Shown here in pieces: positions 8,685 through 52,367 of a DNA stretch of 64,000 bases. The notes below the pieces were generated by a model, which was not told where the DNA came from, searched no databases, and saw only the letters and a list, made by a program, of their open reading frames with translations. Where the stretch lies: assembly GCA_951406725.2 (NCBI GenBank), contig OX597817.1:171740001-171804000 (forward strand). Direction: 5' to 3'. The stretch is from Octopus vulgaris. Lineage: Eukaryota. Positions within the stretch are counted from its first letter, which is position 1. Each line of letters begins with the position of its first letter. A program made the translations under genes and the position numbers.

Positions 8685-9414
8685 GATCATAAGAAGCACG
8701 TGATTTGTGGACACATATGTAGTGAGGCATTAAAATATTTATAAATCCCATCCATGGATTATTATTATCCAGCTTCCATGAAAATATATCCAATCACCAA
8801 GGGGAAAACTTTACCTTGCTTGGAAGCAACAGGCAAGGATTAGAGACAGGAAGGGCATCCAACTGCAGAGAAACCTGCTTTAAAGAATTCCATTCCACGG
8901 GAAACATGGTAGTTTGGTTAAGTGGACATTAAAACAACAGCAATGATGATGACAATGATGATGATGGCAACGATGACGACAGACAGTGATGACGATGCTG
9001 ACAATGGTGATGGTGATGAAACACCATATAAAGAGGCTGCCTTTTTGCGATATTCTCTTCCTTTAGCTTCCCAGTCAATCTATGCCAGTCTTAAATCTGT
9101 GACCTGTACCACACACACACACACACACACACACTTCACTTTTACTCGTTGATGTCTTCATTAAACATCTGACTAACCTTATTGACTTTAAAGCAGATAT
9201 AATGTTCTGTGGGTGATTCACATCATAAGAAATTCAGATGGTTGTTTTTTTTTTTGTTTGTTTTTGGTTCTATCTTTTTGTAGGAGCATATATTTATAGC
9301 AAGAAAATGTGAAGAATTTACTGCGATGAGCAAAATATATGTTGAAGTATCACTGTTATTATATTAATGTGTTACGTGTAGTAAGTGTGCTTGTTTGGCA
9401 GTAGCGCTGCTTTG

Positions 9415-9643
9415 ACTCTTTACTCTTTTACTCTTTTACTTGTTTCAGTCATTTGACTGCGGCCATGCTGGAGCACCGCCTTTAGTTGAGCAACTCGACC
9501 CCGGGACTTATTCTTTTGTAAGCCCAGTACTTATTCTATCGGTCTCTTTTGCCGAACCGCTAAGTAACGGGGACATAAACACACCAGCATCAGTTGTCAA
9601 GCAATGCTAGGGGACAAACACAGACACATAAACACACACACGC

Positions 9644-9674
<31 letters not shown>

Positions 9675-9845
9675 CATATATACGACGGGCTTCTTTCAGT
9701 TTCCGTCTACCAAATCCACTCACAAGGCTTTGGTCGGCCCGAGGCTATAGTAGAAGACACTTGCCCAAGGTGCCACGCAGTGGGACTGAACCCGGAACCA
9801 TGTGGTTGGTAGACAAGCTACTTACCACACAGCCACTCCTGTGCC
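9415..9845 (-). mobile_element. SINE family A, full length (tRNA head, CORE-like domain, internal TA/TG microsatellite, GAGTAAAA tail)
   Basis: A box TGGCTGTGTGG, B box GGTTCAGTCCC, CORE-like ACCTTGGGCAAGT; near-identical to the copies at 11635, 31419 and 44585. Confidence 0.92.
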
Positions 9846-10294
9846 TTACTGTTAAGACTTATATGATGCATTTGAAAGGGTGTTCAACTTCAAGTTAATA
9901 CCAGAAGAATGGAATGAGGGGGCAACGATGACATTACAGGGCTCTGGAAACATACTCCAGTTGAACTTCAAACAAACTGCAAAGGGTCAGGATAGGTTAG
10001 AGACTGCCTACAAAGAGCGGGGGTTAAAATATGAATGGGCCACCACTACTACTACCACTACTCCCACCATTTCCATCGTCATCCTCCTCCTTCTCATCAT
10101 AATCATCAACAAACATCCATTTTCCAAATTGGCTGCAGTCGGAAAGTTCACCAATATCTGAGAGGCTGGAAGACTGTGGTAGACTCCACAATCTACTTCG
10201 GAATGGTTTCTACAGCCAGATGTACTTCCTAACACCAACTACTTTACTAAATGTGCTAAATGCTTTATTTTTTTTTTTATGTTGTTGTCATATG

Positions 10295-10818
10295 AGCACT
10301 AGAAAGGGTATGGCCTGGTCAGCCTGTAGTGACATGCATAAGATCTGGTCATCAAATCTAAGTAGAGACTTCAAACTTGAAATATTCAAAGCCACAGTCG
10401 AACCAATTCTACTATATGGCTCAGAAACCTGGACGTTATCAAAGAAGCTTGAGAGGCGGTTGGATGGAACCTACACTCGCCTCCTTATGAGAGCTCAAAA
10501 TCTCTCGTGGAAGCGCCATCCAACCAAAATGCAAATATATGGGAAACTACCACCTGTGTCATCTCTTGTCAAAGGTAGGAGAGTCCAGTTTGCTGGACAT
10601 TGTTGTAGAGCTGAAAAAGAAGTAATTTCTACTCTTCTCCTCTGGAATCCATCTACTCGCAATACCAGAGAGTGCATACTCTCCTACCCTGATGTAATCT
10701 CCAGGGATACAGGCATCCAGCAACAGGACCTCCGTAATGCCATGATGGACCGTGAAGTCTGGCGTAGCATGGTAAATTCCATTGTCTCGACTACGGTCGA
10801 ACAATGATGATGATGATG
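10295..10818 (+). mobile_element. RTE-clade LINE, 5'-truncated ORF2 C-terminus with (TGA)n tail
   Basis: ORF 10220-10807 contains VEPILLYGSETWTL...QFAGHC...DREVWRSMV, characteristic of the post-RT region of RTE elements. Second copy at 51868-52367. Confidence 0.9.
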
Positions 10819-11389: not shown

Positions 11390-11634
11390 ATATATAGTGA
11401 GAGTGTACAATGATTCTAGGTGGGGCAATGACAAAGAGTAAAGATTGATGAGAGGAACAGATTTTTCCAGCATTCAGTTCTCACCTCAGCACTTTCTTTA
11501 TTGAGCAACTGCAATGCTCAGTTCCTCAATTACTCTTTGATCAACAAATTCAAACTTAGTCTTGGAATTAGCAACCTTTTGACCAAGATCAACACTCAAA
11601 CTTCGAATCACTTCCTCTTTGATTTACTTCAATA

Positions 11635-11796
11635 GGCGCAGAAGTGGCTGTGTGGTAAGTAGCTTGCTTACCAACCACATGGTTCCGGGTTCAGTGCCAC
11701 TGCGTGGCATCTTGGGCAAGTGTCTTCTGCTATAGCCTCGGGCTGACCAAAGCCTTGTGAGTGGATTTGGTAGACGGAAACTAAAAGAATCCCATC

Positions 11797-11872
<76 letters not shown>

Positions 11873-12080
11873 ATGTTTGTGTGTCTGTGTTTGTCCCCCT
11901 AGCATTGCTTGACAACCGGTCCTGGTGTTTTTATGTCCCCGTAACTTAGTGGTTCAGAAAAAGACTGATAGAATAAGTACTAGGCTTACAAAGAATAAGT
12001 CCTGGGGTTGATTTGCTCGACTAAAAGGCGGTGCTCCAGCATGGCCGCAGTTAAATGACTGAAACAAGTAAATGAGTAAA
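11635..12080 (+). mobile_element. SINE family A, full length
   Basis: Same head, body and tail as 9415-9845, with a longer internal (TA)n(TG)n. Confidence 0.92.
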
Positions 12081-15876: not shown

Positions 15877-16711
15877 ATCATCTTTTGGTCTTTTATTCTA
15901 GTAAAACAGCAAACAACCAAGCCCTACCTTTACTTCCCTTCGGCTCTCCCCCTTTTTTTTTCTTCTATCTCCCTTACTTGAAACACCAGGTTCTTTTTTC
16001 TCTTCCTCTCTAAACTCCTGTTGCCTTTTTATTTCATCCCCTCCATTTCATCATCTTCTATTCTCATTCAATGCTTTCATCAATACACTTTCTTATTTTC
16101 CCTGTTTCCCTGTCCCCTTCTCTAAGCTCCTGTTTTTTTTCTTCTCTTTCACCTTTGCCCCACTTGCCTTCACTCTCCACTTCATCTTACTCCTCTACTT
16201 CTCTTCCTCTCCCTCTTCCCTACTTATACTTACTGCCTCATCTCACTCTCCCAGTCCAGTATCACCAACTTCAGCACCTAGTCATTTTTTCTTCTGGGAT
16301 CCTTCATTACTGCATACTAACTCCTTTTCATTATTCCAATTGCATCACACAGAAACCTCTATACATACACACAGGCACAGGCATGGCTATTCTATTAAAA
16401 AGTTTGCCACTGTGTGGCACCTTGTAAAAATGTCTCCTACTACAGCCCCAGAACAACCAAATCCTTATGAGCAGATAAATGAGTGTGAGTTGGCATTTGT
16501 GCTCTCCAAAACTCATGAGCTACATGTAGTGATGTTGGTGTCTTCTGCTGGCTTTGTACCTTCAAAGACGTAAAATAGGAGATCCCTTTCATGAAAAACA
16601 AGTGAGGGTTATTGATGGGAAGAATATTCATTTGTAAAACAATACCTCAATAATACATTCATTTAACCAATGCCATCATAGAAAGCAGGGGTAAAAACTA
16701 ATGAACATATA

Positions 16712-17113
16712 TGTGGTTGGGTGGTAAGAAGCTTGCTTCCCAACCACATGGTTCCATGTTCAGTCCCACTGCATGGCACATTGGGCAAATGTCTTCAACT
16801 ATAGCCTCAAGCTGACCAAAGCCTTGTGAGTAGATTTGGTAGTGAGAAACTGAAAGAAGCCTGATGTATCTATCTATCTGTCTGTCTGTATGCATGTATG
16901 TATGTGTATATCTTTGTGTGTGTCTCTTTGTGCCTGTGTTTGACCCCCAATCACTGCTCTTGACAACTGGTGTTGGTTTGTTTATGTCCCTGAAACTTAG
17001 CAGTTCAGCAAACAAGAAGAGAAAGAATTAAAACTGATAGGCTTAAAAAATAAGTCCCGGGGTCGATTTGTTCGAGTAAAAATCCTTCAAGTCATGACCA
17101 AAACAAGTAAAAG
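16712..17113 (+). mobile_element. SINE family A, diverged
   Basis: Head, body and tail motifs all present. Confidence 0.85.
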
Positions 17114-24592: not shown

Positions 24593-26634
<2,042 letters not shown>

Positions 26635-31255: not shown

Positions 31256-31418
31256 GTGTAATTAGAAGTTTAATGAGGCAATTAAATATAAATATTACAT
31301 CAGTAGCTTGTAATAGACCATCCATATATTCACTTCAGATACTGTCAAGTAAATAATATTTTTTTTATTTCATTCTATTTCATTCTATTTTTCATTCTAT
31401 TTTTCTGCCTCTCACATA

Positions 31419-31579
31419 GGCGCAGGAGTGGCTGTGTGGTAAGTAGCTTGCTAACCAACCACATGGTTCCGGGTTCAGTCCCACTGCGTGGCATCTTGGG
31501 CAAGTGTCTTCTGCTATAGCCCCGGGCCGACCAATGCCTTGTGAGTAGATTCGGTAGATGGAAACTGAAAGAAGCCTGT

Positions 31580-31614
<35 letters not shown>

Positions 31615-31853
31615 TTGTATATATATATATATGTATGTGTGTTTGTTTGTGTATCTGTGTTTGTCCCCCTAGCATTGCTTGACAACTGATGCTGGTGTGT
31701 TTATGTCCCCATTACTTAGCGGTTCGGCAAAAGAGACCGATAGAATAAGTACTGGGCTTACAAAAAGAATAAGTCCCGGGGTCGAGTTGCTCGATTAAAG
31801 GCGGTGCTCCAGCATGGCCGCAGTCAAATGACTGAAACAAGTAAAAAGAGTAA
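31419..31853 (+). mobile_element. SINE family A, full length
   Basis: Near-identical to 9415-9845. Confidence 0.93.
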
Positions 31854-34977: not shown

Positions 34978-35756
34978 CACTGCTAAATGATATAGAGATT
35001 GAAAATGTTGGTAAGATTAATTGGAAACTTAATGAAATATGCCAAGTGAGACAATATAACAAAGTATATCTTTAATATACCTCATATACTTGAAAAAAAC
35101 CAAATCAGTAATTAATCAACTTTTAATGAAACGTTCACGAAAAGTAATGTAAGTCATACACGTAAGAGAGATACTTAATGAAGCTTCTCTTTGCAAAACA
35201 CACACAAAAACACATACACCTCTCCACATATATATAATTATACATACATATAAATGTACACAGACATATACACATATGGGTGTGCCTGTATTGATATTAT
35301 ATATTATCCCTTGTGTACAGATAAGATACTTGCTGGTAGTAGTTGGCAGTGACATCAGTCCATCTTTGTGTTATGAAAGAAATAATGTTCCAGCCTTTAG
35401 CAAAATATTATTATAACAAGAAAGCATGGTTTGCTGTGTAAGTCTTTAATGAAGGCTCTTTGCATGCACTTCATTCCTGCAGTCCTTTAGTTCGTAAATA
35501 ATACAAGAAAAATATCCTCAAGCTTTCAGCTGATGAGGTGAAATCGCTACTAATTTTAGTAGCACACCTGGCTACCCATGTGGTGACCAGCTTCTCTGTG
35601 ACAATAAAAAAGTAAAGAGTATATTCTTACCATTCAATGTTATGTTATTGAACATTTTGTCAACATGCTAATGGTTAGCTAATTAAGTTGAAGACCAACT
35701 TAATGATGGGTTATTTTGCTAATTCTTCATTATTTTAAAAACTAACTGAAACAAAG

Positions 35757-36183
35757 GTGTAGCTGTGTAGGAAGAAGCTTACTTTCCAACCACATGGTTC
35801 TGGGTTCAGTCCCACTGCTTGGTACCTTGGGCAAGTGTCTTCTAACACAGCCTTGGGCCAACCAAAGCCTTGTGATTGGATTCGTTAGACAGAAACTGAA
35901 AGAAGCCCATCATATATATATATACATACAAATATATATGCATGTATATATGTGTGTGTGTCTTTGTGTCTGTGTTTGTACCCCCACCACTGCTCGAAAA
36001 GCAGTGTTGGTGTGTTTACATCTCTGTAAAATAGTGGTTTGGCAAGAGACCAATAAAATAAGTACTAGGCTTTAAAAGAAATAAGTCATGGGGTCGATTT
36101 ATCTGACTAAAAAACTTAAAGATTTTGCCCCAGCATAGCCGTAGTCAAATGACTGTAACAAGTAAAAGAATAAAGAATAGAAG
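35757..36183 (+). mobile_element. SINE family A, diverged
   Basis: Head, body and tail motifs present. Confidence 0.85.
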
Positions 36184-36819
36184 ACTAAAAGGCAGTGTAT
36201 TTCAACAGAAATATGGTAACAAAAAAGAGGTTAATGCTCTTTGTACATTGATCTGTATAATTAAATTCCACTGAAGTCAGCTTTACCTTTCATCCCTTTG
36301 AGATCGATAAAATAAGTACCAGTTGGACACTGGGGTCAATGTAATCAACTTTTCCCATCCCTAAAATTGCTGGGCTTATGCCAAAGTTTAAAACCATTTC
36401 TAAGTTGGTCTTCAGAACATAAATGAAAATGAAGTTTTGATGAGAGGTTTAAATTTAGAATGCTTTCTTTGAAACAGGATGCTTGTATCATGAAGCAAAG
36501 GAGTGTTCTCAGACAGGTTGGTATCAAAAAGGTTAAGGGAAAGTCATTATCCTAAAGCATTATTCTACGCAATTGAAACGTGATTCATTCTTCAAGCCAG
36601 TTCATCCCATCCTTACTGATTTTATTGATGACCAGCCTGCAGCTGACTCAACTCTGTCTCAGTTACTTCAGCTTTTTATGTATAGGAGGTAAAGACCAGT
36701 AGAACATCATAGATCAACGGAATTGATCCACGAAATCAAGCTCAACTGTCATCTACCACAATTAAATGAAATTAACAATTTATGGTATTAATACATTTAA
36801 AAAAAATATTTTTATATAA

Positions 36820-40226: not shown

Positions 40227-40384
40227 GCATGGCTGTGTGGTAAGATGCTTGCTTCCTAACCACATGGTTCTGGTCTCAATCCCATTGTGTGGCACCTTGG
40301 GTAAATGTTTTCTATTATAGCCTCAGGCTAAGCAAAGCCTGTGAGTGCATTTGATAGAATGGAATGGAAACTGAAAGAAGCTTG

Positions 40385-40430
<46 letters not shown>

Positions 40431-40668
40431 GTATGTGTGTGTGTCTTTGTGTCTGTGTTTCTCCACCCCCACCCCCCACCCAACCATTTGACAGCTCGTA
40501 ATGGCATGTTTAAGCCCTGTAACTTAGCGGTTCAGCAAAAGAACTGATAGGATAAGTACCAGGTGTAAAAAAAAAAAAAAACTGGGCTTCATTCATTCAA
40601 CTAAAAATCCTTCAAGGTGGTGCCCCAGCATGGCCACAGACTAATGGCTGAAACATGTAAAGAACATA
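40227..40668 (+). mobile_element. SINE family A, diverged
   Basis: Head, body and tail motifs present. Confidence 0.85.
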
Positions 40669-42121: not shown

Positions 42122-42530
42122 TAAGAAGCTTGCATCTCAACCACATGGTTCTGGATTCAGTACCATTGTATGGCACAAGTGTCTTCCACAATAGCCTCGG
42201 GCTGACCAAGTGGATTTGGTAGCCAGAAACTGAAAGAAGCTCGTTGTGTATATGTGTGTGTGTGTGAGTGTGTGTGTGAATATGTATATATGTATGTAGG
42301 TAGGCATTTGCATGTGTGTGTCTGTATTTGTCCCCACCACACTGCCATCACTTGACAACTGATGCTGGTGTGTTTATGTCCCCGTAACTTAGCAGTTCAG
42401 CAAAAGAGGCTAATTGAATAGGGACTAGGCTTACAAAGAATAAGTCCTCGGATTGATTTCTTCAACTAAAACCCTTTGAAGCAGTGCTCCAGCATGGCCG
42501 CAGTCAAATGACTGAAACAAGCAAAAGAAT
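42122..42530 (+). mobile_element. SINE family A
   Basis: Head (slightly truncated), body and tail motifs present. Confidence 0.85.
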
Positions 42531-44106: not shown

Positions 44107-44584
44107 GAATTTACCATTTCTTTTCTTTTTGCCTAGACACAAAGAGTAAGCAAATGTTTGTGTCTGTGAGGACACTTACCATAAAATAAACAAGATGAAG
44201 TCATACAGGAAGCAAGAATGGTTCGATTGAAAACATAGGTCAGTATTTCTTTGAGGGAAATAATGAGAATTTAATATTAATGTCTTCCATAAGAAACTGC
44301 ATTGTTTTATTATTAAATTATAAAATGTTCTGTATGGTTTGGGCTTCTAGAAAACTTGGCTGAAACATAACTTCTGATAAGTCATATAAACATTTATTAC
44401 GCATTACACATGTGTAATAAATGTGGGACTCTATTTGTGGTAGTTTACACTTGTTAGGAATAGAAATAGCAACCAAATCTCCCTCCAAAAATACATTGCA
44501 CCCTATTTTTTTTTAACCCTTTTATTACTATGTTTCTGTTGAGACAAACACAAATGCAGAAACATACACACATACATACATATA

Positions 44585-44968
44585 GGAACAGGAGTGGCTG
44601 TGTGGTAAGTAGCTTGCTTACCAACCACATGGTTCCAGGTTCAGTCCCACTGCGTGGCACCTTGGGCTAGTACCTTCTACTATAGCCTTGGGCCAACCAA
44701 AGTCTTGTGAGTGGATTTGGTAGACAGAAACAGAAAGAAGCCTGTCGTGTGTGTATATGTATATATATATATGTTTCTGTGTTTGTTCCCCCAACATCGC
44801 TTGACAACAGATGCTGGTGTGTTTACGTCCCTCTAACTTAGCAGTTCAGCAAAAGAGACCGATAGAATAAGTACTGGGCTTATAAAGAATAAGTCCTGGG
44901 GTCGATTTGCTCGACTAAAGGTGGTGCTCCAGCATGGCCACAGTCAAATGACTGAAACAAGTAAAAGG
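44585..44968 (+). mobile_element. SINE family A, full length
   Basis: Head, body and tail motifs present. Confidence 0.92.
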
Positions 44969-45291
44969 GTATCCATACATACATACAGGCCTACATAAAT
45001 GTATACAGACATAGGTGCATGTTTTAGTACAAAACATCCACCCCCAACATATTGACAGATATGCAGTTCACACGTATTGGCATATTGGCATAAACAGTTA
45101 TTGGAACTAATATCTCCGTTATCACGTAGCTAATTAGTATTATTTATATGTTGTTTCGAGACTAATATTGAATTTTTATTGCATATTTATACATTTATGG
45201 CTGTTGCATATGAGAAATACGTGGGAGAATTTGTGTATCTTTACATGTGAAATAGAATAGATACGTTTATCTGTGATGTATCTTAATTTTC

Positions 45292-50487: not shown

Positions 50488-50523
<36 letters not shown>

Positions 50524-50596
50524 TCTTTGTATACTTACTAACTGAACATAACAAATTCGTATGTCCCAGAGTTGAAAAATTATATGCCTTTAGCTT

Positions 50597-50660
50597 TAGA
50601 ATCTGACGAGCCATCCATGGGGCTAGGCCCTTTATGGATGTGAAACCATTGGTCACTCTA
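50597..50660 (+). ncRNA. Type I hammerhead ribozyme with canonical core
   Basis: UAGAAU-CUGACGA-G[C CAUCCAU G GGGC UAG GCCC UUU AUGGAUG]U-GAAA-CCAUUGG-UC/ACUCUA. Stem I 5/6 bp, long stem II, stem III ACC:GGU, GUC triplet with predicted cleavage after 50654; distal helix UAUGUCCCA (50560-68):UGGGACAUA (50664-72). Confidence 0.88.
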
Positions 50661-50734
50661 TGATGGGACATATACTTAACTGCAAATAAATACATTACTT
50701 CTCTATACTTTAGAGTATGCTTCTTTTTCATTGA

Positions 50735-50775
<41 letters not shown>

Positions 50776-50918: not shown

Positions 50919-51106
50919 TATATATTTAGTGAGGGAAGAAATGGAGCTGAACGAAGATTTTACAAAATTCCTTTTTATTATTTTCTACACATTTTTGTAG
51001 GGAATTTGTAGGGAATTTGCAGCCTTTGAAACATGTGTAGAAAATAATAAAAAGGAATTTTGTAAAATCTTCGTTCAGCTCCATTTCTTCCCTCACTAAA
51101 TATATA
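50919..51106. repeat. Perfect 74-bp inverted repeat with 40-nt spacer
   Basis: 50919-50992 is the reverse complement of 51033-51106; TA runs at both outer ends. Confidence 0.93.
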
Positions 51107-51867: not shown

Positions 51868-52367
51868 ACATGCATAAGATCTGGTCATCAAATCTGGTCA
51901 TCAAATCTAAGTAGAGACTTCAAACTTGAAATCTTCAAAGCCACAGTCGAACCAATTCTACTATATGGCTCAGAAACCTGGACGTTATCAAAGAAGCTTG
52001 AGAGGCGGTTGGATGGAACCTACACTCGCCTCCTTATGAGAGCTCAAAATTTCTCGTGGAAGCGCCATCCAACCAAAATGCAAATATATGGGAAACTACC
52101 ACCTGTGTCATCTCTTGTGAAAGGTAAGAGAGTCCAGTTTGCTGGACATTGTTGTAGAGATGAAAAAGAGGTAATTTCTACTCTTCTCCTCTGGAAGCAA
52201 TCTACTCGCAATACCAGAGGGTGCACACTCTCCTACCCTGATGTAATCTCCAGGGATACAGGCATCCAGCAACAGGACCTCTGTAATGCCATGATGGACT
52301 GTGAAGTCTGGCGTAGCATGGTAAATTCCATTGTCTCGACCACGGTCGAACAATGATGATGATGATG
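51868..52367 (+). mobile_element. RTE-clade LINE 3' fragment, second copy
   Basis: Differs from 10330-10818 by roughly a dozen substitutions counted by eye; short ATCTGGTCATCAA duplication at the 5' junction; (TGA)n tail. Confidence 0.92.

Follow-up and report, generated by a model that had tools for sequence, protein, structure and literature searches.

Closest described systems

Penelope-like elements (PLEs) of the Hydra clade are defined by a C-terminal endonuclease (EN) without CCHH, a CxCX5C linker and CxxC and CxH motifs around the conserved E and N, and they combine (TA)n targets with canonical hammerhead ribozymes, as described in the accessible parts of the defining paper (Craig et al., 2021, PMC8557442). 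Hammerheads in the pseudo-LTRs of metazoan PLEs have also been characterized: a single ribozyme gave no cleavage and dimers gave low cleavage (Cervera and de la Peña, 2014, PMC4209133). In the available portion of that work, these motifs have a long helix II of 7–8 bp, a small palindromic helix III and, at the bottom of stem II, an additional unpaired nucleotide, and they occur mostly as solo truncated copies, with some pairs lying close together on opposite strands. Animal non-LTR retrozymes likewise carry type I hammerheads in short units of low GC content (Cervera and de la Peña, 2020, PMC7229834; Li et al., 2026, 10.64898/2026.07.22.740005; both from the accessible text).

The locus described here lies within a 64-kb stretch (the window) of the 2.8-Gb, microsatellite-rich genome of Octopus vulgaris. 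It is very probably a truncated, decaying copy of a PLE with a type I hammerhead at its 3′ end, assigned to the Hydra clade by motif comparison; it probably entered a (TA)n run through target-primed reverse transcription, and its ribozyme is likely to be weak or inactive today. All the features listed above for metazoan PLE hammerheads recur in the octopus family, except that stem II is longer here and that a 6-bp stem I is followed by a partly conserved extension (55–69% paired). The family adds another octopus-type member to a clade already published with hammerheads.

The hammerhead motif

An earlier note had placed a near-canonical type I hammerhead at window positions 50560–50672 on the forward strand, and a base-by-base check found each of its elements in place. 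The core is complete, with CUGACGA (C3 to A9) at 50603–50609, GAAA (G12 to A15.1) at 50642–50645 and the GUC triplet at 50652–50654; C50654, 3′ of which cleavage is predicted, is taken to be C17 by standard hammerhead numbering. Stem I (50597–50602 with 50655–50660) has five of six pairs, A50601 standing against C50656 as an A·C mismatch at pair 1.2. The long stem II (50610–50641) amounts to about 12 bp with a 2-nt bulge and a 3-nt loop; the 7-bp and 4-bp helices claimed for it were seen at 50612–50618/50634–50640 and, as 4–5 bp, at 50619–50623/50627–50631. In folding of the window copy its outer helix has pair probabilities of 0.86–0.99, and its closing pair is G·U, whereas 24 of 49 subfamily copies have G–C there. 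Stem III has the expected 3 bp (50645–50647/50651–50653) within a 9-nt palindrome (50645–50653) whose central base is unpaired; it is weak as a hairpin (+0.4 kcal/mol) and stable as an intermolecular duplex (−8.9 kcal/mol). The z-score of the fold is −3.0.

The term near-canonical therefore holds for the core, but not for a stem II of about 12 bp instead of about 4, nor for a stem III that is a weak palindrome of dimer type. Compared with canonical type I hammerheads (the Schistosoma type and the Rfam families), the motif shares the CUGANGA/GAAA/GUC core and a 6-bp stem I, whereas stem II is three times longer and ends in a 3-nt loop, so that the usual contact between loops I and II is not evident, and there is no Rfam match.

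That last difference and the frequency of the loose core pattern (15 matches in the window against 9.5 expected, a count reached by 18 of 100 shuffles and thus not significant) are what could be said for a chance likeness to a hammerhead. When core and stems were combined in one descriptor, the hammerhead site was the sole match in the window and none of 100 dinucleotide-shuffled windows gave one, which bears out the view that such complementarity around an exact core is unlikely by chance. The stems also covary among relatives, as described below, and the position of the motif and the form of its stem III are those of the published hammerhead of Hydra-1_Obim, as far as its accessible description goes. 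Chance likeness is thus rejected, its probability being practically nil, and the hammerhead motif in the window is genuine.

Rfam gave no match in the window at gathering score, and relaxing the threshold to E ≤ 10 brought up no hammerhead family; the top matches were hairpin and microsatellite artefacts. The covariance-model hit that the earlier note had looked to is thus absent for Rfam. The miss does not refute the motif, because at E ≤ 1 the hammerheads of five other loci, from relatives and from a young intact family in the same genome, were missed too, and the test does not discriminate. A custom model (R1) matches the window site by construction, which is no evidence for it, and it did not match the young family. 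Since Rfam misses these hammerheads with their long stem II, they are undercounted.

A dispersed repeat truncated at its 5′ end

The hammerhead belongs to a stretch at 50522–50737 on the forward strand which, by the alignment of its relatives and their link to an open reading frame (ORF), is the 5′-truncated 3′ end (3′ UTR or pseudo-LTR region) of a Hydra-clade PLE. It is flanked by a (TA)n run of 14.5 copies at 50493–50521, part of the target microsatellite, and by an (AT)n run found by the repeat scan at 50737–50770, which the 3′ end of the family adjoins. Besides the window copy, at least 60 family matches at 73–94% identity were found, with the best 40 of 1166 candidates scored, and one 19-mer of the copy has 251 exact matches genome-wide against none for a control. 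The copies share a common 3′ end next to TA-type repeats, and their 5′ ends are staggered: of 30 loci, 14 reach at least 30 nt past the 5′ end of the window copy and six at least 250 nt. At 13 of 29 distinct places a divergent second copy lies 5′-to-5′ on the opposite strand. The window copy is solo, with neither an inverted nor a tandem partner, and no second hammerhead copy was found within the 64 kb.

The earlier note had seen a 215-bp unit in the size range of non-LTR retrozymes. A stretch bounded by two (TA)n runs does exist, but its 5′ edge is a point of truncation and not a unit boundary, because the 5′ ends are staggered, the 3′ end is common and there is no tandem array in the window. 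On the retrozyme reading, the stretch would be a monomer of about 215 nt of a non-autonomous element, replicated through circular RNA and inserted by PLE enzymes. Its size and low GC content do fit the units of 150–450 bp described in the accessible part of PMC7229834, solo monomers and an origin of retrozymes from PLEs figure in the available text of Li et al. (2026), and one locus (L058) has short same-strand partial duplications. What speaks against it is the absence of tandem units from the window and, genome-wide, of any exact two-copy pattern at a spacing of 198–228 nt, an exact-match search that decayed arrays can escape. Moreover, only one same-strand neighbour within 1 kb was found among the first 100 of the 251 19-mer sites listed, and where a non-coding unit of fixed length would be expected, the staggered 5′ ends run into an ORF of Penelope-like type. 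The family thus shares with animal non-LTR retrozymes, as the accessible parts of both papers present them, a type I hammerhead, the size range and low GC, but differs in having neither tandem units nor a fixed length and in being tied to a protein-coding element. The retrozyme reading of the window copy is largely refuted and is given only a slight probability.

Two small structures may be recorded beside these results. At L058 (1750–2510) the hammerhead fragments form a locally rearranged cluster, with the short same-strand duplications inside an inversion. Near the 3′ end of the window copy, a small hairpin at 50701–50715 is conserved in the family; in the accessible sequences of Hydra-2_Amil and Hydra-2_Ajap, inspection by eye showed similar hairpins at the 3′ end, and the hairpin is possibly a recognition signal for the reverse transcriptase (RT).

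Link to an RT/GIY-YIG reading frame, probably of the Hydra clade

Longer copies lead upstream into a broken ORF encoding an RT and a GIY-YIG EN, which is absent from the window copy. At locus L025 the family stretch is continued upstream by a GIY-YIG C-terminus, and RT or EN remnants are found upstream on the same strand in five of 30 loci. The reverse search with an EN piece, in which at least 150 matches were scored among 14,823 candidates, gave the same association: the hammerhead lies downstream on the same strand in nine of 19 other EN-matching loci, and one further locus has its 5′ part only. No full-length copy of the window-copy subfamily, and none reaching the N-terminus, was present among the loci found, and all copies seen are broken.

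The order of domains in longer relatives (L002/L055, L025/L054 and L051–L053) is RT followed by a C-terminal GIY-YIG EN. By-eye inspection of the translations shows that the EN lacks CCHH and has a CxxC motif ahead of the conserved E and a CxH motif following the conserved N. The CxCX5C linker is intact in the young family (L074), partial in L071 and L053 and degenerate in the subfamily of the window copy; the N-terminal RWK and DKT motifs are present in the young family. The remnant translations agree motif by motif, again by eye, with the rows of Hydra-1_Obim in the accessible part of the published alignment (Craig et al., 2021). On this comparison, the upstream ORF appears to belong to the Hydra clade, with Hydra-1_Obim from Octopus bimaculoides as its closest described relative. 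The Naiad clade had been the first candidate and was ruled out by the C-terminal EN together with the hammerhead.

The likeness to Hydra-1_Obim, taken from the accessible parts of PMC8557442, extends from the coding region to the 3′ end. The two share the order of RT and GIY-YIG domains, near-identical motifs in the RT thumb, linker and EN, the (TA)n target, a type I hammerhead about 100–135 nt from the 3′ end (the distance from C3 to the 3′ junction is 134 nt here) and a palindromic stem III of 4 bp with one central base (acca-a-tggt in Obim). On the other hand, the sequences of stems I and II differ, stem II has about 12 bp here against 7 in Obim, the cleavage triplet is GUC instead of GUU, and the EN of the octopus family described here contains a long low-complexity insert. 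Because of the differences in stems I and II, the window family is regarded as a sister of Hydra-1_Obim and not as the same family. In old Hydra families (L052, L071, L073 and L078), a long Ser/Asn/Thr-rich insert of low complexity separates the first half of the GIY-YIG motif from the second.

Neither Pfam nor PDB provided a label for the protein sequences. Pfam gave nothing significant for six remnant pieces and four longer ORFs, and the intact ORF of the young family had no relevant match among PDB sequences. The ESM Atlas returned unnamed clusters and, at lower rank, clusters in which some members have GIY-YIG or RVT_1, a lead only. A homologue search with the EN remnant gave two matches among 302 candidates, both of them proteins of O. 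bimaculoides.

Covariation and the ancestral ribozyme

Alignment A1 comprises 59 copies, with ten of 69 hammerhead matches omitted as truncated or rearranged. In it, 89% of the hammerhead cells are paired, against 35–47% for slid controls, and changes on both sides of a pair occur in stems I, II and III. Three pairs of stem I are changed on both sides in eight or nine sequences each, and the innermost pair of stem III in nine. Most of these compensatory changes go back to a single subfamily split and so represent few independent events. Measures based on pair counts did not beat shuffles (308/500 and 272/500), and for the decayed copies RNAalifold returned no consensus structure. The exact core, together with the way in which stems I and III have changed in compensation from one subfamily to the other, upholds the assignment to type I. 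This covariation also makes it likely that the ribozyme worked in the ancestor.

The innermost stem III pair can form only between two molecules, because the loop that it closes is a single nucleotide. Covariation that includes this palindromic pair points to cleavage as a dimer and offers support from natural sequences for the dimer mechanism proposed for such ribozymes, in agreement with Cervera and de la Peña (2014). A copy of the sister subfamily (L071) carries a direct repeat at its two termini, each with its own hammerhead. An active ancestor would have carried one ribozyme in each pseudo-LTR of a partial-tandem transcript. Two of these ribozymes would associate through their palindromic stems III, and cleavage 3′ of the NUH triplet would set free RNA of unit length. 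The GIY-YIG nuclease of the element would nick a (TA)n tract, where the RT would begin copying this RNA at its 3′ end. At the window site copying presumably ended after about 215 nt and left the copy with neither an ORF nor an element promoter.

A distal helix private to the window copy

The earlier note had also described a 9-bp distal helix closing a large internal loop that could dock with loop II. The helix itself is real on paper, with all nine pairs between the 5′ arm (50560–50568) and the 3′ arm (50664–50672) of Watson–Crick type, but this proposed docking partner of loop II is private to one copy: among 22 copies examined it is present only in the window copy, and the 21 relatives form one to six of the nine pairs (eight of 30 loci, which have no 5′ arm, were left out of this scoring). 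The 17-mer covering the 5′ arm and its flank is unique in the genome, and positions 50664 and 50665 of the 3′ arm carry bases other than those of most family members. The alternative found in the family is a weaker extension of stem I in a different register. The distal helix is the sole unusual trait of the window copy.

Four changes from the family majority raise the pairing from five to nine of nine, and all of them create pairs, an outcome unlikely to have arisen by independent point mutations. Each arm variant occurs elsewhere alone, the 3′ arm in L003 and L082 and the 5′ arm in L009, and no minor subfamily with both arms was found. The changes are clustered at 50559–50568 and 50664–50673, where an imperfect match in the family has become a perfect inverted repeat in the window copy only. 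As a guess, template switching at a quasi-palindrome may have made the helix without selection.

The same four changes, with the intact core, are what would favour the retention or re-tuning of a PLE remnant as a working solo ribozyme that cleaves a host transcript and is stabilized by a distal helix under selection. This reading is nevertheless very unlikely, since intact cores occur in the family at the rate expected by chance (see below), a mismatch lies next to the core, the arm variants occur singly and template switching could build the helix without selection, and no host exon is evident among the ORFs of the window. A stronger form of the idea, in which domestication would be under way, with the private helix of 9–11 bp locking stem I, the 12-bp stem II docking in a non-canonical way and a host transcript being cut, is slightly less probable still. 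Should monomeric activity within a host RNA be found for this copy, it would offer a tractable example of how a ribozyme is domesticated.

Decay and present activity

The preferred reading, a decaying PLE remnant, is in line with the state of the family. Compared with the majority base in each alignment column of 29 relatives, the window copy has 24 differences in 207 positions, the mean pairwise identity within the subfamily is 77%, and the decay looks neutral. Of 49 copies, 15 have kept the core intact, against 14.0 expected if the columns were independent; core losses affect G8 in 15 and G12 in 14 of the 49, mostly at CpG sites. At this chance rate, the intact core of the window copy does not indicate selection. 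Seven of 49 copies retain the core together with every scored pair of stems I and III, and the window copy is not among them, because it has A at position 50601, where 43 of 49 relatives have G, giving the A·C mismatch at pair 1.2. According to a review, a mismatch at the adjacent pair 1.1 (not 1.2) causes at least a 500-fold loss.

In the predicted ensemble of the window copy, the first pair of stem I is open and stem III is formed in less than 10%. The cost of adopting the hammerhead fold is 7.3 kcal/mol for the window copy, mostly 4–14 for other copies and 5.6 for the young family; every copy pays at least 4 kcal/mol, and constrained folding of this kind does not rank activity. Nor did fold modelling set the window copy apart from the young family or from copies with better pairing. 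To judge from its sequence, the window copy probably self-cleaves weakly or not at all at present. Its earlier description as potentially active is weakly supported, and it is likely an ordinary fossil and not a new ribozyme system. Contigs of two sequencing runs guessed to be RNA contain 52 and 31 family pieces at 80% likeness; none of these contigs spans the stretch in the window, and they carry no information on strand, ends or locus.

A young Hydra family and other repeats

The young Hydra family in the same genome has open frames of 717 aa and is present as 2.59-kb partial tandems and inversions that are more than 99.8% identical, and it displays the architecture in which such hammerheads would act. 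Its own hammerhead (L074:3670–3740, L075, L076 and L077) is of type I and has U4C in all 13 copies listed, 12 of them distinct. In the accessible text of an earlier study, U4C reduces activity in vitro, yet can suffice in vivo (PMC3088659). That such a core variant is fixed in a family of seemingly recent age is worth attention.

Further repeats were seen in the window. A near-perfect inverted repeat of 168 nt (50929–51096), of foldback or MITE-like type, lies 200 nt downstream of the hammerhead stretch and accounts for a spurious Rfam match to AEV_CRE. Two 482-bp copies (10337–10818 and 51886–52367) are 96.9% identical and presumably encode the C-terminus of a LINE-type RT. An interspersed SINE-like repeat of about 430 bp has at least eight copies (9410–9846, 11632–12080, 16692–17091, 31416–31853, 35736–36191, 40227–40661, 42122–42528 and 44564–44971), and an (AAT)n array of about 447 units occupies 24593–25932.
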